From a virus (taxonomy: Duplodnaviria > Heunggongvirae > Uroviricota > Caudoviricetes), in the IMG/VR virus record IMGVR_UViG_2913167280_000002: a stretch of DNA of 46,386 bases. The stretch is one strand, 5' to 3'. How positions within the stretch are numbered: the first letter of the stretch is position 1; each line of letters opens with the position of its first letter. Position numbers and translations under genes: made by a program. Shown in pieces: positions 5,609-27,226 of the stretch. Under the pieces are notes generated by a model. The model did not search any database and had not been told where the DNA came from. It was given only the letters and a program-made list of their open reading frames with translations.

Positions 5609-6760
5609 TTATGGTCTGCTTTTCTGTGCCAGCTTATCAGCACATGTTTTTATCAGATCCTGTAGTGTCCTGGCTGGCAGGTTTGCATCCAGAACGCTGA
5701 GTATGCTGTTGTGATCAGCTTGGTCGACTACTTTGCCTGTCGGTGGTAGTAGCTTGAGCTGAGGATTCAGGTTTTCGTCAAAGCTGATAAGTGCTCTGGC
5801 GTTTCTGAGCAGATCAAGAAGTAAGGCTGATATCACATTTTCCTGAGTCATTGCTGGCAGATTTAGCGCCGCTTTGGTTTTCCCTGTTGCCTTGTCAAAC
5901 TCCTTGATTAGTTCCTTTCTGTAGTTCGGTTCCGTTAATAGCCGATTATGCTCTGTTGCCGCGCGGATAATCGTTTTTTCCTGGTACAGTCGTTTAGCCA
6001 GATCGCGCTCGTACTGTGTTTTTAACACGCTGCTGATAGCGTTAAAGGCTTCAATGTAGGCCAGCTTGATATCTTTCACGCCTGGACCGTCGATGCTCTC
6101 CATGAGCAAGGTAAATCCGTCTTTTGTCATGCGATAGATTGTTATTTCGCGGTCGCTTCCTTCCAGCGGTCGTTGCTCTTTAAAGAAGTGACGCGCCGCA
6201 GCCGTGCGAGGAATGCGTAGCGCATCGATGGCCATAACGATGGAATTGTTTGTGGTGCTGAATGCCTGGGCAACATCGGCTGAGGTTGTGAGTGGCTCGT
6301 TGTTGCACACTTTAATGTAAAACATCGGTTTGGCGTTGAGCGTATCGACAACCTCACGAGCATTGTTTGGCGAGACGGTTACGGTCGCGGCCGTTTGCGC
6401 GTTCTGGCTGAAATAGCAGTCTTCCAGCCGTTCGAATACATCCCACGCCTGATCGGTTTCGAGCATTTTAGCGTGACGTGCAGCCCCGCGTTCTGTCCAG
6501 AGGATGAGAGAGCGAGTTTTGGGGGAAATTTGCACCTCATTTTGTGACTCGTTTAAAACTAGTCGCAAATTTTTGAGTTCATCACCAACAGCTTTAAAGA
6601 AGTGCTTCCCCTCAATGAACCGAGTTTTATTTTCATGGTGATTTTGCTGTATACGGATTGCTTCTGTTCCATAAAGGCGGGCGAGTAGCTCAGTTGTGAT
6701 TACTGGAATCTGATTATGCAGGATAGGCTGTAGGGTGTTAACGATCGGAAGCGTTTTCAT
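5609..6760 (-). CDS. phage antirepressor-like protein (Ant/Rha-type)
   Basis: 383 aa; N-terminal region resembles antirepressor/Rha regulatory domains; preceded by an overlapping small ORF as in P1 icd-ant. Confidence 0.5.
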   Translation of the reverse strand: MKTLPIVNTLQPILHNQIPVITTELLARLYGTEAIRIQQNHHENKTRFIEGKHFFKAVGDELKNLRLVLNESQNEVQISPKTRSLILWTERGAARHAKMLETDQAWDVFERLEDCYFSQNAQTAATVTVSPNNAREVVDTLNAKPMFYIKVCNNEPLTTSADVAQAFSTTNNSIVMAIDALRIPRTAAARHFFKEQRPLEGSDREITIYRMTKDGFTLLMESIDGPGVKDIKLAYIEAFNAISSVLKTQYERDLAKRLYQEKTIIRAATEHNRLLTEPNYRKELIKEFDKATGKTKAALNLPAMTQENVISALLLDLLRNARALISFDENLNPQLKLLPPTGKVVDQADHNSILSVLDANLPARTLQDLIKTCADKLAQKSRP

Positions 6761-6948: not shown

Positions 6949-7113
6949 TGTGATGATTCCCTTAAAGGTTAAGGATACTCACCACCGTCAGGTTCCAATC
7001 ATTGGGTGGTGAGACGTGCAGGGTTGGAACTACCGGACACAATGACGAACCGGCGAGTCTTACGACTCCCCCGCACGCCCCACCATAATTTGGGTGTAGC
7101 AGTGCTTTACGCA

Positions 7114-7200
7114 TAAAAAAACCGCTAACGCGGTATGCGCCATTGTGTCTACGGGGTTCCAATCCCGGCCGTAGATTTTGCTACGGCTCGGAAAGTGTCC
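7114..7200 (-). ncRNA. candidate small regulatory RNA upstream of the antirepressor operon (c4-like position)
   Basis: Minus-strand terminator (stem ACCGC/GCGGT at 7121-7134 plus T-run); hairpin 7149-7174 whose loop carries GGTTCCAAT; no ORF. Boundaries approximate. Confidence 0.3.
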
Positions 7201-7245
7201 ACCAATGGCGCATTCATGTCAATACGGCGGGATTTTAACAGACTA

Positions 7246-7263
7246 AACCACATAGTGTGGGTT
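7246..7263. promoter_or_regulatory. operator-like palindrome (ACCAC-N5-GTGGG)
   Basis: aaccacatagtgtgggtt between the divergent antirepressor region and the 7398 HTH gene. Confidence 0.35.
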
Positions 7264-7397
7264 TGAATGCGGGGCTTTTAATTTTCTTGATATGCTAAAA
7301 ACGGGAATGTATAGTTCCTGTAAGGAATCAATTAGTCCTGAGTTATGATGTTTTGTTAAAGTCGGGAACAAGAAAAAATTCAGTATGGGGATAAAAA

Positions 7398-7937
7398 ATG
7401 ATTGAACTGTCAAAAAACTCATGTTTTTCAACCATTCACCTAATGATCATAAAAGAACTTAGGCTAGAAAGAGGTGTGCATCAAGGAGTACTGGCTCAAG
7501 CTGCTGGAAAAACACCAAACGCATGGACAAAGATAGAGAACGGGCAGTCTATATTAACAGTTGACGCCCTTTTTGGTGCTTTCACAGCCCTTAATATTAC
7601 TCCAGTGAATTTCATGTCATTGGTAGAAAATCTTATTCCCGAATTTAACCGTTATGGTTACTTCTTTTTCCCTGGAACAATCAGTCAGGACGAGGATAAC
7701 CTTTTACCTCTGATGCTGCGTTACTTTAATAGCAAGGGGTTTGAAGCATTGAGAAATAGGCCATTAGAAAGAGTTAGCATTAGCTCAATGGGATTCTCAT
7801 TTGGGGGCGGCATCCCTGTTACTCCAACTGCTGTAATGTATTGTTGCGATGAAGCATATAGAAATTGGGTCGATAACGGTGCTGATGTGGATAATCGAGA
7901 TTATCTGGAGTCATCAACAGGTCGTGGACTGTTTTAA
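7398..7937 (+). CDS. HTH (XRE-family) domain protein with C-terminal domain of unknown function
   Basis: N-terminal HTH segment GVLAQAAGKTPNAWTKIENG; 179 aa. Confidence 0.5.
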   Translation: MIELSKNSCFSTIHLMIIKELRLERGVHQGVLAQAAGKTPNAWTKIENGQSILTVDALFGAFTALNITPVNFMSLVENLIPEFNRYGYFFFPGTISQDEDNLLPLMLRYFNSKGFEALRNRPLERVSISSMGFSFGGGIPVTPTAVMYCCDEAYRNWVDNGADVDNRDYLESSTGRGLF

Positions 7938-7950
7938 TGAGTGAAGAAAC

Positions 7951-7982
7951 AAAAAAACCGTCCTTTTGAGGACGGTTCTTTC
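7951..7982. terminator. bidirectional rho-independent terminator
   Basis: Stem ACCGTCC/GGACGGT with an A-run upstream and a T-run downstream. Confidence 0.6.
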
Positions 7983-8374
7983 GTGCTGATCGGATTCGCG
8001 GTCCTTTCAGCATTACGTTGTTGTATAAACAACCACGCAAGCACAAGCAGCAAGTTGATTTTACCCAAAAGGTAATAATAGTCCACTATTATGCTTCAAA
8101 AAATTGTGGTTCTTGTTGTGTCTGCAAACTCACAGATTGTGGGTAGGTTACTGATTTTGTGAAAATAAACTGGTTTTTTCGTTTAATTTATTTCCTATTA
8201 CTAATCTTAAAATAATCGTAAAATACCTGTGGACCTTCCCGCCGATTCGCACCCGGGCACCGACTTTAGGGGAGGATTTCCTGTTGCCGTACATGCAAGC
8301 ACAAGCAGCCGTGCTTGCTCTCGCGTTGTTTTCGTCGGTGGGGATGCCGTGAAACGGCCTGTAAGGGCCATACA

Positions 8375-8497
8375 ATGAAAAAATACTGTATGTGTATTTT
8401 TATCGTTGTTACTGGGGCTTTGTTTACGCCACATGGGGAGGGTTGGAAGATTACTGATAACGCTCTGAATGTGACGATAAACATTAGCAGCAAGTAG
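8375..8497 (+). CDS. candidate small hydrophobic peptide (40 aa)
   Basis: MKKYCMCIFIVVTGALFTPHG...; AAGGG about 8 nt upstream; ends just before the terminator at 8503. Speculative. Confidence 0.25.
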   Translation: MKKYCMCIFIVVTGALFTPHGEGWKITDNALNVTINISSK

Positions 8498-8502
8498 CGA
8501 TT

Positions 8503-8526
8503 AGGCCCCTTCGGGGGCCTTTTTTA
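8503..8526 (+). terminator. rho-independent terminator
   Basis: Stem AGGCCCC/GGGGCCT, loop TTCG, then TTTTT. Confidence 0.65.
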
Positions 8527-9039: not shown

Positions 9040-9693
9040 TTACGCGGCAGTAGTCAGAGCCTCAAGCTGGTTGATAATCCCCTGAATAACGTCGTCTGCC
9101 TTTTTGCGTGGCGCAACGTATGAGCACTCAATGAGGCTTAAGCCCTTATCCTGAGCTTTGCTCAGAGCTGGCTTGTGGGGAATGTACTTATCGACAACAA
9201 AGTATGGCGTATTAGCCAGGTACTCTTGGGCTTCGATGTAGTCAGCTTCGTTTTCAGCCGCGCCGGAAAACACCATGCAAATTTTCTTGATTGGTACGCC
9301 CTTTTTAACGATGCCGTGAGCAGTGTTAACGGTGGTTTCAAGGTCATCGGTAGAGAATCGGGTTGGCAAAATAACCATATCCAGAAATTCAGATAGCTTC
9401 GGTACTGATTCAGATGCGTAGGCACCGCCATCAACGATAACCAGGTCGTATACTTCTGATTCGATGATTTTCTGGACTTGTGATGGCGTGCCGCACGGCT
9501 GCGCCGCGATTGCAGGTTCGATATTGTTGGCCATTCTGCGTTGTACCCAACGCGTTACCGTTCCGTTAAGCACATCCATATCGATCAGGCATACATTCCA
9601 GCCAGCCTTTGCATAAGCAACTGCTAAAGCACGGGCAATGGTTGATTTGGTTACGCCGCCTTTTCCGTTGAAAATACCTACAGATATAGTCAT
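9040..9693 (-). CDS. parA: partition ATPase ParA (small type Ib)
   Basis: Deviant Walker A GKGGVTKST; about 217 aa; GGAG RBS before the second in-frame Met. Confidence 0.8.
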   Translation of the reverse strand: MTISVGIFNGKGGVTKSTIARALAVAYAKAGWNVCLIDMDVLNGTVTRWVQRRMANNIEPAIAAQPCGTPSQVQKIIESEVYDLVIVDGGAYASESVPKLSEFLDMVILPTRFSTDDLETTVNTAHGIVKKGVPIKKICMVFSGAAENEADYIEAQEYLANTPYFVVDKYIPHKPALSKAQDKGLSLIECSYVAPRKKADDVIQGIINQLEALTTAA

Positions 9694-9714
9694 TTGTCGA
9701 GACTCCATGTGTTT

Positions 9715-17703: not shown

Positions 17704-17970
17704 TTTACCAAAGAGCAATTGATTGCCCATATTCGTGAACGTAAGGAAGCGCGCCAGAGAATGTTGGATACGGTAACTATTAACCCCGGATTTCGTGAAT
17801 ATCTTGAAAGAGAGCTTGCTACAGATGAAATTGCACTGGCATCCCTGGCATCTGCACCTGTTGCATGGCTAGTTGGAGGGCGTTTGTTCACAACTGAGAT
17901 AGCTGCGGGGATGTACGCTAGTGAGGTGAGGAAAGCAGTTAAGCCGCTATTCTTTTCTGCACTACTGTGA
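17704..17970 (+). CDS. hypothetical protein (paralog-like to the preceding ORF)
   Basis: LASLASAPVAWLVG versus LASLEAEPVAWTDD in the 17319 protein. Confidence 0.35.
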   Translation, partial: FTKEQLIAHIRERKEARQRMLDTVTINPGFREYLERELATDEIALASLASAPVAWLVGGRLFTTEIAAGMYASEVRKAVKPLFFSALL

Positions 17971-18115
17971 GTATTGTTTTTTTATTGATCGATTAACCAC
18001 ATTTTGAAGGTTTTTTTTATGGGAAAACCTTGTTTTAGGTGGTAACTGGGTGTAGTGTTTCATTTAACGTAGTAAAACTGCGTTAAGCGATTACCGCGTA
18101 ATTTGTTGCTTTATG

Positions 18116-18147
18116 AAGCCCTGCCTTTTCGGCGGGGCTTTTTTTTT
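18116..18147 (+). terminator. rho-independent terminator immediately upstream of the lysis cassette
   Basis: 9-bp stem AGCCCTGCC/GGCGGGGCT followed by nine T; ends 14 nt before the holin ATG. Confidence 0.65.
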
Positions 18148-19936: not shown

Positions 19937-20012
19937 GGCCCCTTAGCTCAGTGGTTAGAGCAGGCGACTCATAATCGCACGGTCATCGGTTCAAGTCCGG
20001 TAGGGGCCACCA
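19937..20012 (+). tRNA. tRNA with CAU anticodon (Met or lysidine-modified Ile)
   Basis: 76 nt; 7-bp acceptor stem, D-arm GCTC/GAGC, anticodon loop CTCATAA, T-loop TTCAAGT, encoded CCA; one G-A mismatch at the top of the anticodon stem. Confidence 0.75.
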
Positions 20013-20315: not shown

Positions 20316-20903
20316 ATGGAGGCAATTGCATTGTTTAATCTGATTTATGCAGATCCCCCCTGGGAATACAAAGACAAGTGTAAGGATGGGAATCGTGGCG
20401 CTGGTTTTAAGTATCCAACGATGAAAGCTGAGGAGATTGCTCGTATTCCTGTCTGGCAGCTTGCTAATCCTGAATCGTGTTTGTTGGCCATGTGGTGGGT
20501 TCCGACTCAGCCAGAAGAAGCGTTGCTGGTGGTGAAAGCATGGGGATTCAGGCTTATGACCATGAAGGGCTTCACATGGAACAAATGTGGTAGCCGACAA
20601 CCAGATAAGCTGGTGATGGGAATGGGGCATATGACTCGTGCAAACAGTGAAGATTGCTTGTTTGCAGTGAAAGGCAAACTACCGACACGTCTTGATGCGG
20701 GGATCATTCAGTCGTTTACATCGCCTCGTCTGGAGCATTCTCGGAAGCCTGATGTGGTCCGTGACAAGCTGGTAAAGCTGTTAGGCGATGTTCCTCGTAT
20801 TGAGCTGTTTGCTCGCGGTGATTTACCTGATGGCTGGCATGGCTGGGGCAACCAGTGCAACGGAGGTATCCAGTTGCATGATGCTCTCTGGCAAGTGTCA
20901 TAG
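20316..20903 (+). CDS. MT-A70-family DNA N6-adenine methyltransferase
   Basis: DPPW catalytic motif in LIYADPPWEY near the N-terminus; 195 aa. Confidence 0.7.
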   Translation: MEAIALFNLIYADPPWEYKDKCKDGNRGAGFKYPTMKAEEIARIPVWQLANPESCLLAMWWVPTQPEEALLVVKAWGFRLMTMKGFTWNKCGSRQPDKLVMGMGHMTRANSEDCLFAVKGKLPTRLDAGIIQSFTSPRLEHSRKPDVVRDKLVKLLGDVPRIELFARGDLPDGWHGWGNQCNGGIQLHDALWQVS

Positions 20904-21482: not shown

Positions 21483-21504
21483 ACCGTAACGATAACGAAC
21501 AACG

Positions 21505-21531
21505 AGCCTCGGCAATTGCCGGGGCTTTTTT
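21505..21531 (+). terminator. rho-independent terminator
   Basis: GC-rich palindrome GCCTCGGCAATTGCCGGGGC followed by TTTTTT. Confidence 0.55.
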
Positions 21532-23346: not shown

Positions 23347-23970
23347 ATGACAAAACAACTTAATGTGGTTTCTTTACCACTTTCTGTGTTGATTGGTTAT
23401 GAAAAGAACGCTCGCACACACTCCGTGGAGCAGGTAGATCAGATTGTTGCCAGCATACAGGAGTACGGATGGACTAATCCGATCCTGATAGACGAGAACA
23501 ACGTTGTAATTGCTGGTCATGGTCGAATTGCTGCGGCCACTCAGTTGGGGATGGATGATGTTCCCTGCATTGTTCTGGCTGGGCTAACGGAGAATCAGAA
23601 GAAGGCATATCGTCTGGCCGACAACCGTATTCCGCTGAATGCTGGTTGGGATGAAGAGCTGTTAAGCGCGGAGCTTGCAGATCTTGCGGCCGATGATTTT
23701 GCTCTGGACTCAATTGGTTTTACTCAGCGCGAACTGGATAACTTATTGAGTGCGGCGGTCTACGATGACACAGAGGGTATGGATATCCCATTTGAGAAGG
23801 ATGAGGCCAAATCAGGCGTAAAAGTTCAGTACCTGTCATTTGGAGGTCATAAAATCCCGGCAACGGATGAGGAAGCGGATCGTTTTGACTGCGCGGTGTC
23901 TCGTTATGTTGATGATAATGGCAGCTATATCGGATTTGTATCCGCATTGCTGGCTGGGGAGGTGTGCTGA
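23347..23970 (+). CDS. ParB-like nuclease-domain protein
   Basis: ParB N-terminal-domain pattern ...NPILIDENNVVIAGHGRIAAA...; paralogous to the 26636 protein. Confidence 0.6.
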   Translation: MTKQLNVVSLPLSVLIGYEKNARTHSVEQVDQIVASIQEYGWTNPILIDENNVVIAGHGRIAAATQLGMDDVPCIVLAGLTENQKKAYRLADNRIPLNAGWDEELLSAELADLAADDFALDSIGFTQRELDNLLSAAVYDDTEGMDIPFEKDEAKSGVKVQYLSFGGHKIPATDEEADRFDCAVSRYVDDNGSYIGFVSALLAGEVC

Positions 23971-25343
23971 TGCTTCACCTGAATTACGACATAACGCACC
24001 TACGCGGCGCGGAATATAACCCGCGTTTTATCGGTGAGGATGATCTTGCGAGGCTGGAGGAAAGCGTCAGGGAGCTGGGGCTTGTGAAGCCATTGATAGT
24101 GCGCGGCGATTTGCTGGTGGCGGGACACCAAAGGACGAAGGCGCTACGTAAGTTGGGAATAACGCGTGCTGCGGTGTATGTGTTGCCCTGTGAAACGACG
24201 GTATACGACGAAGTTCGGTTTAACCAACTGCATAACGGAACGGATTTTGATAGCGGAGATGAGCGTTGCAGGGTGTCCGGTCTGGAAGATAAGCATGGTT
24301 TTGTTCAGGTATCGGCAAGCCAGATCTCAGGCAATATGCGCGCGAAAATGGCATATGTTCGAAAGAACATAGCGGAACTGGTTATCAAGTATGGTCCGTG
24401 GGGTGGTTGTGTTGCTACTCAGTCTGGCGAGGTTATTCACTGTGCTCAGTATGCATTAGCAGCGAAGATGACGCGCACACCGCTAACGGTGTTTGTGATC
24501 CCTGATGTTGAGAAGGAAAAATACCAAAGTTATCTGAATAAAACTTATGGTGTATTTGAGTATTCTCATCTGGAGAAAACAACATACATCCAGACGTATG
24601 CGCAGCTTATGCGGTTGCGTAATGGTGGCAGCCTGAAATCAAACCTGTATGAGTCGTTGATCCTCCCGATCATTGCCAAGACGCCAAGAGGAATTGATTT
24701 TGGTTCGGGGCAGGGAGACTACGCGCGAATGCTCAGGGCAAAGGGGTATAACCTGCATGATCTTGAGCTTTTCCGCCGTAAGGGCGCAGGAAACACTCTG
24801 GATAGGGCTGCAACAAACCGAATGATTGATACGCTGGTGGACGACTTAAAAACGCGAGGGCGTTACGACTACGTGATTTGCGATAGCGTTTTGAACTCGG
24901 TCGATAGTGTCGAGGCTGAATGGTCCGTTCTGACGGTTCTGAAAGGCCTGTGTAAAGCTGGTGGGTCAATATTCTTTTCTGGCCGTAGCCGTGGAGAGCT
25001 GGAGAGTGTGCTTAAACGAACGCAAGCTGCTAGCTCTATAAGTCGGCTTTATTTTATTGACCATAACGGTTTTTCTGCTTTGTACCGGAAGGGACACTGG
25101 TTTTATCAGAAGTTTCATTCTGATGAGGAAGTGAAGCAATTGTGCCGTGAGCATAGCTTCAGAATAAAGCGGTCGGTATTTAACGGTAAGAGCTGGTATT
25201 TGCACGTTATTAACGATGATTCTCTTCGCTGGGAGAGTCTGGAGAAAGCTGTTCGTTTTGAGTTTGAGTTGCCGTTGCCTGGTGGTTCAACAATCGGACG
25301 ATCTGATGATGTGTTGGCGGCTTTCCGGCCGTTGATTAAGTAG
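23970..25343 (+). CDS. fusion protein: ParB-like N-terminal domain plus class I SAM-dependent methyltransferase domain
   Basis: N-terminal ParB-like block (LVAGHQRTKALRKLG); C-terminal GIDFGSGQGDY motif I and YDYVICDSVLNSV motif II; no DPPY-type amino-methyltransferase motif seen. Confidence 0.55.
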   Translation: MLHLNYDITHLRGAEYNPRFIGEDDLARLEESVRELGLVKPLIVRGDLLVAGHQRTKALRKLGITRAAVYVLPCETTVYDEVRFNQLHNGTDFDSGDERCRVSGLEDKHGFVQVSASQISGNMRAKMAYVRKNIAELVIKYGPWGGCVATQSGEVIHCAQYALAAKMTRTPLTVFVIPDVEKEKYQSYLNKTYGVFEYSHLEKTTYIQTYAQLMRLRNGGSLKSNLYESLILPIIAKTPRGIDFGSGQGDYARMLRAKGYNLHDLELFRRKGAGNTLDRAATNRMIDTLVDDLKTRGRYDYVICDSVLNSVDSVEAEWSVLTVLKGLCKAGGSIFFSGRSRGELESVLKRTQAASSISRLYFIDHNGFSALYRKGHWFYQKFHSDEEVKQLCREHSFRIKRSVFNGKSWYLHVINDDSLRWESLEKAVRFEFELPLPGGSTIGRSDDVLAAFRPLIK

Positions 25344-25359: not shown

Positions 25360-26079
25360 GTGGCTGACAGAATTGAGATAAAGATGGATTTTTCTTCTCA
25401 GGATATTCAACGACAACTCCAGCGCCTTGAAGAACGCGAATTGCCATTCGCAATGGCGCTTGCGGCAACCAGAACGGCAAAGGCTTCTCAGGCTGCGATT
25501 AAGAATGAAATTAATCGGGTATTTGACAGGCCCACGCCGTGGATTCAGAACTCTACTTACGTTTTGGCCGCAAAGAAGAGTGATCCTACAGCCATTGTGT
25601 ATGCTCGTGAATGGGGAGGAACGCCAGCCCCTGTAACGTTGACTCCGCAAATCGAAGGTGGCCAACGACAGTACAAACGCTCAGAAGGGGCGCTAAGGGC
25701 TGGTGGATATTTGCCTAACGGCTGGCAGCTTGCTCCTGGTCCCGGCGCAAAGCTGGACAAATACGGGAATATTTCGCGGGGGCAATTACAGCAGGTCTTA
25801 TCTGGCCTAAGAGTTCAGCGAGATGCGCATCAAAATCGCCGTCAGGGCAAGCCTACGGAGTTTTTTGTTGTTCGACCTGGTACAAGTAACCCGCTTCAAC
25901 CAGGCGTCTGGCAGCGCGTTGGGCGGCGTCCTACGTTGATCCTTACGTTTATCCAGCAACCTAACTATTCGCAGCGTCTTGATTGGCATGGCGTGGCGCT
26001 ACGTGCTGGTGAGGATGCGTTTGCTGATGAAGTCACAAAGGCTATTGATGACATTCTTTCTAAGACGTTCTCTCGTTAA
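25360..26079 (+). CDS. hypothetical protein
   Basis: GTG start with AGGAGG RBS. Confidence 0.4.
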   Translation: MADRIEIKMDFSSQDIQRQLQRLEERELPFAMALAATRTAKASQAAIKNEINRVFDRPTPWIQNSTYVLAAKKSDPTAIVYAREWGGTPAPVTLTPQIEGGQRQYKRSEGALRAGGYLPNGWQLAPGPGAKLDKYGNISRGQLQQVLSGLRVQRDAHQNRRQGKPTEFFVVRPGTSNPLQPGVWQRVGRRPTLILTFIQQPNYSQRLDWHGVALRAGEDAFADEVTKAIDDILSKTFSR

Positions 26080-26635
26080 TCATCGTGTGGTTGATGGTGT
26101 TGTTATGCAGGGTGTATTCACTGTGTTCTGTAGCGTCGCTCGCTGGCTGTCTGTGGGTGAGCACGAGCATCGTTTCATCGTCCGGCAGAATTGGGTCCTT
26201 CTGGCCAAAAGCGTTGGATGCGGGTCATTCGAACCCCGATGTTCGGCTAGCTAAACGTGAAAAAAGTTAGGTTAAAAGTTGCGGTAAAAGAAATTTACTC
26301 ATCTCATTGAAAAATATCGGGAAAACGTGATTTTTTGCTGTATTTGTGCTGGTAAAAAGAAAGTAGAAAATTTTCTTTTAGATCATCAAGATACGCGCAG
26401 ATCTTTAACCAATGTGATGTTGTTCTGATAAAAATCGTTATAAATCATGCAAATACATCCAATCTTTTAACCAAAACACCATCTCAAGATCCTTTTCACT
26501 TATAAAAACTTAATAAAATCAGATAATTATGCTGGTTTGTGTGATTTTTTATGAGTAAAAAGATCGTCATTTTCTCTTTTAGTATCAATAAGTTAAACAG
26601 TTTTCTTTAACCTGTTGTGTTATGGCGGTTAAAAA

Positions 26636-27226
26636 ATGGCTCTAAAAATCGAATATTTACCAGTCGGTAAGCTGCTCAGATACGCCAAAAATTCACGGAC
26701 TCATTCAGATGAGCAGGTTGAACAGTTGGTGAACAGTATCCGTGAGTTCGGTTTCACTAATCCTGTGCTGATCGATGAAAAGAATGAACTGATTGCGGGG
26801 CATGGTCGGCTTGCAGCAGCCGAAATTCTGGAAATGGATAAAGTTCCGGCGATTCGGTTGAGTAACCTTTCTGAAAAACAGAAGAAGGCTTACAGGATTG
26901 CAGATAACAAGCTGGCCTTAAATGCTGGCTGGGATATGCAGCTTCTGGCCGAAGAAGTCAAAGAGTTAATGGATGATGATTTTGATATTGATCTGCTTGG
27001 GTTTAATGATGCAGAACTTGACGAAATGTTAAGCGATGAACAGCCGCAGGAAGAAGACGATAATTCTTCCCCTGTTGTTCAAATTAAGTACCTGGCTATT
27101 GATAAAGAACGTATTCCCGCGACGGATATGGAAATTGCATTGTTGCTGGATGTTTATCGTCAGTACCACGACGCGCATGAAACGCATGAGGGATTTGTTC
27201 AGTATCTTGCTAATGGTTGCAAGTAA
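26636..27226 (+). CDS. ParB-like nuclease-domain protein (second paralog)
   Basis: Same domain pattern as the 23347 protein; its stop overlaps the terminase small subunit start. Confidence 0.6.
   Translation: MALKIEYLPVGKLLRYAKNSRTHSDEQVEQLVNSIREFGFTNPVLIDEKNELIAGHGRLAAAEILEMDKVPAIRLSNLSEKQKKAYRIADNKLALNAGWDMQLLAEEVKELMDDDFDIDLLGFNDAELDEMLSDEQPQEEDDNSSPVVQIKYLAIDKERIPATDMEIALLLDVYRQYHDAHETHEGFVQYLANGCK

Follow-up and report, generated by a model that had tools for sequence, protein, structure and literature searches.

A probable lambda-type cos site upstream of the terminase genes of an enterobacterial phage-plasmid

What does a phage genome keep in a long gap directly in front of its packaging genes? 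In the IMG/VR virus record IMGVR_UViG_2913167280_000002, whose whole stretch of 46,386 nucleotides was analysed here (hereafter the window), 556 bp separate the stop codon of an upstream open reading frame (ORF) at 26079 from the start of a ParB-like ORF at 26636. An initial annotation described this gap (26080-26635) as an AT-rich interval, the largest without ORFs in the structural region, and proposed that it holds a cos or pac site and a late promoter. Its size and place are confirmed: no other gap from the lysis genes to the tail genes is as long in the annotation of a plasmid of 99% identity, and it precedes the genes of a ParB_N protein, a small terminase subunit (TerS, PHROG 57), and a large terminase subunit (TerL) of the gpA family. 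The description as AT-rich applies to the right-hand part only, since the GC content is 28.5% in 26260-26635 (376 bp) but 53.9% in 26080-26259, against 44.4% in the whole window.

We consider that the gap holds the lambda-type cos site of a phage-plasmid, working like the cos of lambda, and assign this reading a probability of roughly 85%. It is well supported because the ends of relatives' records fall inside the gap, the terminase is of the gpA type, and the arrangement of cosQ and cosN has the geometry of lambda. The initial suggestion of a cos upstream of the terminase genes thus stands in its location, but the probable cut site at 26223-26234 lies outside the AT-rich, GATC-bearing part.

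Genome ends of relatives and the cos core

Circular plasmids of 46-52 kb match the window at 98-99% identity, and three deposited records of free phages grown on Yersinia pestis (vB_YpM_39, vB_YpM_41, and vB_YpM_44) represent the same genome. The records of vB_YpM_39 and vB_YpM_41 (OR545053 and OR545054) begin with GGTCATTCGAACCCCGATG, which corresponds to position 26223, and end with GTTGGATGCG at 26222. The record of vB_YpM_44 (OR545055) begins with CCCGATG at 26235 and ends with GCGGGTCATTCGAAC at 26234. These two breakpoints are exactly 12 bp apart, and the segment between them, GGTCATTCGAAC, stands at the left end in two of the records and at the right end in the remaining one. Together with four Vibrio phages, seven virion-derived records break inside this one 12-bp segment. 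The record of PVP-XSN breaks at the homologous top nick, that of XM1 carries its own 12-mer, GGTGCTCGCGAC, at both ends, and those of X29 and R19R break at +11 and +10 relative to the putative top nick. For X29, defined physical ends are supported by drops in read coverage (PMC5690320). GGTCATTCGAAC is invariant in all enterobacterial relatives. The IMG/VR members of the family all span the site because they were assembled from cellular DNA, and three extra matches to a 16-mer in IMG/VR proved to be chance matches in unrelated contigs.

The N15 record also has 12 nt duplicated at its two ends, and the annotation gives its sticky end as a 5' extension. The duplicated 12-mer of XM1 would be the pattern expected of filled-in 5' overhangs, as in the N15 record. 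Since TerL belongs to the gpA family and the XM1 12-mer is duplicated, we infer a 5' overhang, with nicks between 26222 and 26223 on the top strand and between 26234 and 26235 on the bottom strand.

For comparison, the ends of lambda and N15 were read from their records and then lined up with the window. The left flank, cohesive end, and right flank read ACGGGTCCTTTCCGGTGATCCGACAGGTTACG, GGGCGGCGACCT, and CGCGGGTTTTCGCTATTTATGAAAA in lambda, and TTGGGTCCTTCTGGCCAAAAGCGTTGGATGCG, GGTCATTCGAAC, and CCCGATGTTCGGCTAGCTAAACGTGAAAAAA in the window. The heptamer GGGTCCT, which occurs only once in the 46-kb window when both strands are scanned, is located at -30 to -24 from the top nick in lambda, N15, the window, the Salmonella relatives, and the Vibrio phages XM1 and X29, and it is invariant in 22 enterobacterial relatives. 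cosQ is a highly conserved 7-bp element needed for the termination of packaging (PMC4669245, PMC4856287), and by analogy GGGTCCT at 26193-26199 would be the packaging-termination element of this phage. The window has CG directly 5' of the top-strand nick, where lambda-like phages have a conserved CG (PMC4669245). To the right of cosN, the I2-like segment (Table 1) is kept in the Salmonella and Vibrio relatives. At this offset, lambda and N15 carry TTTTCGCTAT and TTCTCGCTAT, followed by A/T tracts, and an AT-rich I2 segment has been described between cosN and cosB (PMC4856287).

Conservation was assessed over five non-redundant lineages, with ~63% identity to the window in the intergenic region. 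Within the gap, conservation is strongest in 26190-26208, 26210-26240, and 26261-26280, the last being one of the four top blocks. By contrast, the stretch between the upstream stop codon and the cos core has indels of 14 nt and 20 nt relative to the Salmonella relatives, and the ORFs there are not conserved. A small gene in the gap was also considered and rejected, since its ORFs of 20-91 amino acids (aa) are broken by indels in relatives and the RefSeq annotation of the 99% identical plasmid has no gene within the gap. A tRNA-like or attP element, suggested by the resemblance of GGGTCATTCGAACCCC to a tRNA fragment, was discarded as well: ARAGORN calls only the tRNA at 19937, and an Rfam search of 25950-26750 with E up to 1 matched no family. 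The predicted folding energy of a DNA hairpin at the cos core (-8.2 kcal/mol, z = 0.37) is no better than that of shuffled sequence.

Several points weigh against a lambda-type cos at this place. The end positions come from the records of relatives and not from DNA of this exact element, and all three Yersinia records are flagged circular. The right-hand breakpoint differs among the Vibrio records (+10, +11, and +12), and therefore the overhang length rests mainly on vB_YpM_44, XM1, and the analogy with lambda. The right nick reads AC/CC, with CC in place of the conserved CG. Our equation of GGGTCCT (bp 48473-48479 of lambda) with the exact cosQ of lambda is an unconfirmed assumption; the lambda cosQ sequence is said to have been reported by Wieczorek and Feiss in 2001. 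The cohesive end is identical to that of lambda at 3 of 12 positions, which places it outside the 'lambda-like cohesive end' group as previously defined (PMC4669245). TerS has no match to Pfam Phage_Nu1, even at E up to 10, and Foldseek gives no significant match for its model, those to Xis, RacA, and BldC having E ~1-2. Finally, the AT-rich arm to the right of cosN is ~3 times longer than lambda cosB, 90 bp of it are dispensable, and the GGTWAAARR motif of its repeats was defined after the data were seen.

The mechanism that we propose follows that of lambda. During late replication, the gpA-family TerL and the small TerS, which appears to bear a helix-turn-helix (HTH), would assemble on the AT-rich arm with its GGTWAAARR repeats. 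TerL would nick the two strands 12 bp apart to leave cohesive ends with 5'-GGTCATTCGAAC, and packaging would run to the right, into the genes of the ParB-like protein, the terminase, the head, and the tail. When the next cos is reached, GGGTCCT, 23 bp upstream of the nick, would act as a cosQ-type termination signal.

Table 1 Features of the gap and of the packaging genes downstream. Repeat copies m1-m8 are numbered from left to right; functional names denote putative roles.
Feature	Position	Strand	Basis or description
Spacer from the upstream stop codon to the cos core	26080..26188		Few conserved columns; GC-normal
cosQ-like element TTGGGTCCTTCTGG	26189..26202	+	Core GGGTCCT 26193-26199, -30 to -24 from the top nick
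Spacer from the cosQ core to the nick	26200..26222	+	23 bp, ends GGATGCG; length as in lambda and N15
cosN, putative 12-nt cohesive end GGTCATTCGAAC	26223..26234	+	Record ends of relatives; invariance
I2-like segment CCCGATGTTCGGCTAGCTAAACGTGAAAAAAGTTA	26235..26269	+	TTCG.CTAGCT block conserved, then A-tract
Repeats m1 GGTTAAAAG and m2 GGTAAAAGA	26270..26291	+	bp 48-69 of the mature left end
Extended cosB-like array	26351..26635		28.5% GC; further GGTWAAARR copies m3-m8
m3	26351-59	+	GGTWAAARR copy
90-bp segment dispensable for lytic growth	26361..26450		Holds GATC 26381, GATC 26400, and m4
Four GATC sites	26381, 26400, 26488, 26562 (26381..26565)		Each AGATCN
m4	26402-10	-	GGTWAAARR copy
m5	26464-72	-	GGTWAAARR copy
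IHF-like site AATCAGATAATTA	26517..26529	+	Pattern scan; one mismatch from WATCAANNNNTTR; between inverted m5 and m6
m6	26554-62	+	AGT in the window, GGT in relatives: AGTAAAAAG here, GGTAAAAAG in relatives
Exact IHF consensus TATCAATAAGTTA	26583..26595	+	Pattern scan; partly conserved in Salmonella relatives
m7	26604-12	-	GGTWAAARR copy
m8	26627-35	+	GGTWAAARR copy; overlaps the ribosome-binding site of the first gene
ParB/Srx N-terminal-domain protein, 196 aa	26636..27226	+	Pfam ParB_N 3.8e-8; PHROG 620 4.6e-75
Small terminase TerS, 183 aa	27226..27777	+	PHROG 57 'terminase small subunit' 7.4e-42
Large terminase TerL, 618 aa	27783..29639	+	Pfam GpA_ATPase 7.1e-76; GpA_nuclease 1.1e-84

The AT-rich arm and rival readings of the gap

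The 9-mer GGTWAAARR has 12 matches in the window, seven of which lie in both orientations within 26270-26635 (366 bp). The expected number for this interval is 0.09, and the maximum in 2000 local dinucleotide shuffles is 3. The first copy, m1, is unchanged in all 22 relatives compared, and m2 is conserved. In lambda and N15, the R3 site spans bp 48-65 (PMC9026076), and by position the m1/m2 pair is a candidate equivalent of R3, that is, a proximal terminase-binding site. The repeat copies are kept in the relatives of ~63% identity while the spacers diverge. In the Vibrio relatives, five copies of a different repeat, GTTAACAC, are located in the same place between cosN and the first gene. Such a difference is the pattern expected if the repeats have a role in lineage-specific packaging recognition.

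Two matches to the IHF consensus were found in the array. The block AATAAAATCAGA.AATTATG around the 26517 site is conserved in the Salmonella relatives, and the I1 (IHF) site of lambda lies between R3 and R2 (PMC4669245). By this analogy the 26517 match might be an IHF site, but its assignment, like that of the 26583 match, is weak because such matches are common in AT-rich DNA. The plaque-forming phage vB_YpM_44 has a clean deletion of 26361-26450. We consider the AT-rich part to be at most a terminase-binding (cosB-like) arm.

The rival reading that survives best accepts cos at 26189-26234 but takes the arm at 26260-26635 as mainly regulatory, namely, as an activator-dependent or ParB-like-bound promoter or operator whose repeats are regulator sites. 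We regard it as unlikely. The length of the arm compared with lambda cosB and its dispensable 90 bp fit this reading, as do the repeats that reach the ribosome-binding site of the first gene and the ParB_N-domain protein that is encoded directly downstream in all relatives. In addition, a second strong terminator on the + strand (21504-21527) lies upstream, and a restart of transcription further on is conceivable. On the other hand, the first repeats stand at the position of lambda R3 relative to the nick, and no late activator was identified among the neighbouring genes. A scan of 25800-26900, which leaves activator-dependent promoters outside its scope, found no sigma-70-like site against 1.6 expected in shuffles, and the homologous Salmonella and Vibrio regions have no sigma-70-like promoter either. 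The late promoter that the initial annotation had placed in the gap therefore finds no support.

Since no terminator is predicted on the + strand of the gap, transcription from upstream is possible, and it is plausible that late transcripts start there and read through cos, as in lambda. Upstream of the lysis genes, no gene could be recognised as a Q-type antiterminator or a late activator. A 190-bp gap at 17970-18145 ends in a strong + strand terminator (18115-18141, with an 11-bp stem and a T-run) directly before the holin gene, and this region resembles the late control region pR'-tR' of lambda.

It is quite improbable that the AT-rich array is a plasmid-maintenance element, either an iteron origin or a ParB-like centromere, which stands beside cos by chance. 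AT-rich DNA with short repeats and GATC sites does resemble an origin, three ParB_N-domain proteins are encoded around the array, and 72 of the 73 matches in E. coli genomes are plasmid-borne. Nevertheless, the 9-mers occur in both orientations with irregular spacing and form no tandem iteron array, no replication initiator gene is adjacent, and ParA is encoded 16 kb away (9040-9708). Vibrio phages X29 and XM1 have an analogous array in the same place, and the X29 paper reports integrases. Moreover, lytic growth was the only selection on the phage that carries the 90-bp deletion in the array. In a related plasmid, the ParA gene is followed by an 82-aa gene, typical of type Ib partition systems, and hence the plasmid centromere is probably located near ParA rather than at cos.

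Even less probable is that there is no packaging site at all and that the deposited genomes start in the gap by convention, upstream of the terminase genes. Many depositors do rotate genomes to start near the terminase genes, and the three Yersinia records are labelled circular. A convention would hardly make records from several submissions break in the same 12 bp, 140-413 bp upstream of the first gene and in the most conserved block, nor would it duplicate exactly 12 nt at both ends of one record. The ends of X29 were seen as drops in read coverage, and the breakpoints coincide with the cosQ spacing of lambda.

The GATC sites bear on the remaining reading. Four of them lie within 185 bp at the positions initially given, and 3 of the 4 abut a repeat copy or repeat-like sequence, so that they may partly belong to an extended repeat. 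Compared with local dinucleotide content they are mildly enriched (4 observed, 0.78 expected; 0.35% of shuffles reach 4). Window-wide, such clustering is expected by chance: three runs of four GATC within at most 185 bp occur in the window, where random placement of the 133 sites gives a mean of 2.0 and at least one run in 81% of trials. The sites at 26488 and 26562 are mostly kept in relatives, but those at 26381 and 26400 are absent from nearly all Salmonella-type relatives (2 of 22 sequences carry GATC at the 26400 site). Among the plaque-forming Yersinia phages, 26381 is lost in vB_YpM_41, 26400 in vB_YpM_39, and both in vB_YpM_44, so none of the three viable phages has all four sites. We do not regard the GATC sites as a required regulatory element, and their cluster is mostly incidental.

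In P1, pac is a Dam-regulated cluster of TGATCA/G hexamers, which is cut by PacA/PacB and followed by headful packaging. A pac site of this type, with Dam-controlled cleavage at the clustered GATC sites as first suggested, is almost certainly not what the gap holds: this element resembles P1 in having several GATC sites in a short AT-rich stretch beside the packaging genes and in being a phage-plasmid with a P1-like C4 antisense RNA elsewhere in the window, and it also encodes DNA methyltransferases, but 26080-26635 contains no TGATCA/G hexamer, the terminase is of the gpA family and not PacA/PacB, the ends of relatives are defined, and the GATC sites are poorly conserved and partly dispensable. 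The idea of Dam control can be dropped. As a separate observation, GATC is slightly under-represented in the whole window (133 against 161.5 expected; 99 of 100 shuffles have at least 133), and this coexists with a gene for an MT-A70-family DNA methyltransferase at 20316-20903.

Packaging proteins and comparison with known systems

The gpA domains of TerL span residues 37-583 of 618. TerL is ~28% identical to its counterparts in N15 and lambda-like phages and 63-65% identical to those of Vibrio X29 and XM1, and it is presumably the enzyme that nicks cosN. Pfam gives weak HTH matches for residues 3-36 of TerS, and in a single-sequence AlphaFold model residues 1-50 (pLDDT ~87) form a small HTH with beta elements. 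Sequence searches of the PDB with TerS and TerL returned no useful match. TerS is a candidate reader of the GGTWAAARR repeats, with the ParB-like protein as the alternative reader.

The order of cos, ParB-like gene, terS, and terL is the same in Vibrio X29 and XM1. The ParB/Srx protein encoded between cos and terS might be a third packaging component that loads on the array beside cosN, a proposal that we regard as rather doubtful. If it held, the ParB-like protein would mark or condense the DNA end for the terminase, or would couple packaging to plasmid maintenance, and the array that it reads would be GGTWAAARR here and GTTAACAC in Vibrio. In all, three ParB/Srx N-terminal-domain proteins flank cos (23347-23970, 23964-25343, and 26636-27226), the second of which carries a fused methyltransferase domain. 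The gene order of X29 and XM1 appears to extend to some viral contigs that are more distant, and in several of these the ParB-like gene lies within ~100 bp of a contig end.

The proposed cos shares many features with that of lambda, whose kind of site is also present in N15, 21, and Gifsy-1. The proposed site is located directly upstream of the packaging genes, and its putative nicks are 12 bp apart. GGGTCCT precedes the top nick by 23 bp, CG stands directly 5' of that nick, a TTCG.CTA block and an A-tract come after cosN, and the first repeat is at about bp 48-65 of the left end. TerL has both the gpA ATPase and nuclease domains, and the head genes are of the lambda type. The differences are also clear. 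TerL is only ~28% identical, TerS cannot be recognised as a Nu1 protein, the repeats have a motif unrelated to the R sites, and the arm measures ~400 bp compared with ~120 bp in lambda. Furthermore, this phage has a ParB-like gene between cos and terS and a contractile, P2-like tail, and its prophage is a plasmid. Since GGGTCCT, the 23-bp spacing, and the R3 position hold at ~28% TerL identity, the comparison suggests that the geometry of the cos site is conserved along with the gpA-family terminase fold.

The closest characterised phages, judged by the TerL identity, are Vibrio myophages. For this group, which consists of X29, phi 2, Rostov 7, XM1, PVP-XSN, and R19R, the family 'Weiviridae' has been proposed (PMC11432961). 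They share a short repeat array between cosN and the first gene and the homologous cos core TTGGGTCCT..GCG/GGTnnTCGnnAC/CCCG..TTCG.CTAGCTA. They differ in the 12-mer (GGTGCTCGCGAC) and in the array, in which the GTTAACAC repeats occupy ~100 bp compared with ~370 bp here, and X29 encodes integrases, whereas the element studied here encodes ParA and is kept as a plasmid. The papers on the Vibrio group that we searched do not describe a cos site, the XM1 paper and a preprint naming vB_EcoM-613R2 contain nothing on genome ends, a literature search on vB_YpM_39, 41, and 44 found no paper, and no description of the packaging site of this family was found in the literature searched.

Beyond these phages, some unrelated viral contigs of IMG/VR that are uncultured and rich in GC (L066, L070, L071, L088, and L091) also carry the 14-mer TTGGGTCCTTCYGG, with different sequence downstream. 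The L070 stretch ends 16 nt past the searched 23-nt pattern, which may be the contig end. Judging from these sequence matches, the cosQ-like element may be widespread among gpA-type phages. If so, the cosQ heptamer and its 23-bp spacing would be deeply conserved in gpA-type terminases outside the 'lambda-like' group, including the contigs with TTGGGTCCTTCYGG. In two distant viral contigs (L040 and L043 of IMG/VR), whose ParB-like proteins are 50-53% identical, the core GGGTCATTC is kept at the corresponding place. An AAGGTAC.CC element is located ~25-30 bp upstream of that core, and the downstream repeats differ, being of the AGTTAGTG type.

A cos site with a 12-nt end would fix the natural start of the genome, which is useful for annotating a widespread family of phage-plasmids. 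It predicts cos-specific packaging rather than generalised headful packaging, and it shows which fragment would have to be present in a cosmid-type vector or a hijacking satellite. The finding is otherwise an ordinary one.

The phage-plasmid, its hosts, and other features

The gene content was read from the annotation of the 99% identical plasmid and from our own profile searches. The plasmid-type and regulatory genes include a ParA partition ATPase, a CI-like repressor, and an anti-repressor, in addition to a lysis cassette. The head module is of the lambda type, with the gpA-family TerL, a lambda-family portal, a ClpP-type protease, and a gpE-type capsid protein, and the tail module is of the contractile P2 type. 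Since a lambda-type head and a P2-type tail are combined with ParA and repressor genes, the element is a temperate myovirus kept as a circular plasmid of ~48 kb. A search of 5,426 complete E. coli genomes found the family in 72, one of which is that of the reference strain ATCC 25922. Similar plasmids also occur in E. fergusonii, E. albertii, and Klebsiella, and in Salmonella at ~70% identity. The Yersinia phage HQ103, called 'plasmid-like' in a paper, was suspected to be a relative and proved to be an unrelated P2-like phage.

The gene directly upstream of cos (25360-26079) belongs to no Pfam or NCBIfam family, and its labels disagree: PHROG 1924 is 'minor tail protein', RefSeq has 'hypothetical protein', and one Salmonella record has 'glycosyltransferase family 1'. 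The labels of the tRNA at 19937-20012 also differ. ARAGORN calls it tRNA-Met (anticodon CAT), and RefSeq calls the tRNA at the corresponding position of the related plasmid tRNA-Ile, presumably reading CAT as lysidine-modified. Finally, Rfam matches C4 antisense RNA (7002-7090, - strand), isrK (7115-7187, - strand), and ryfA (8229-8525, + strand) next to the anti-repressor gene (5609-6760, - strand). These RNAs at 7002-8525, together with the anti-repressor, look like an antisense immunity module of the P1/P7 type in a phage with a lambda-type head.

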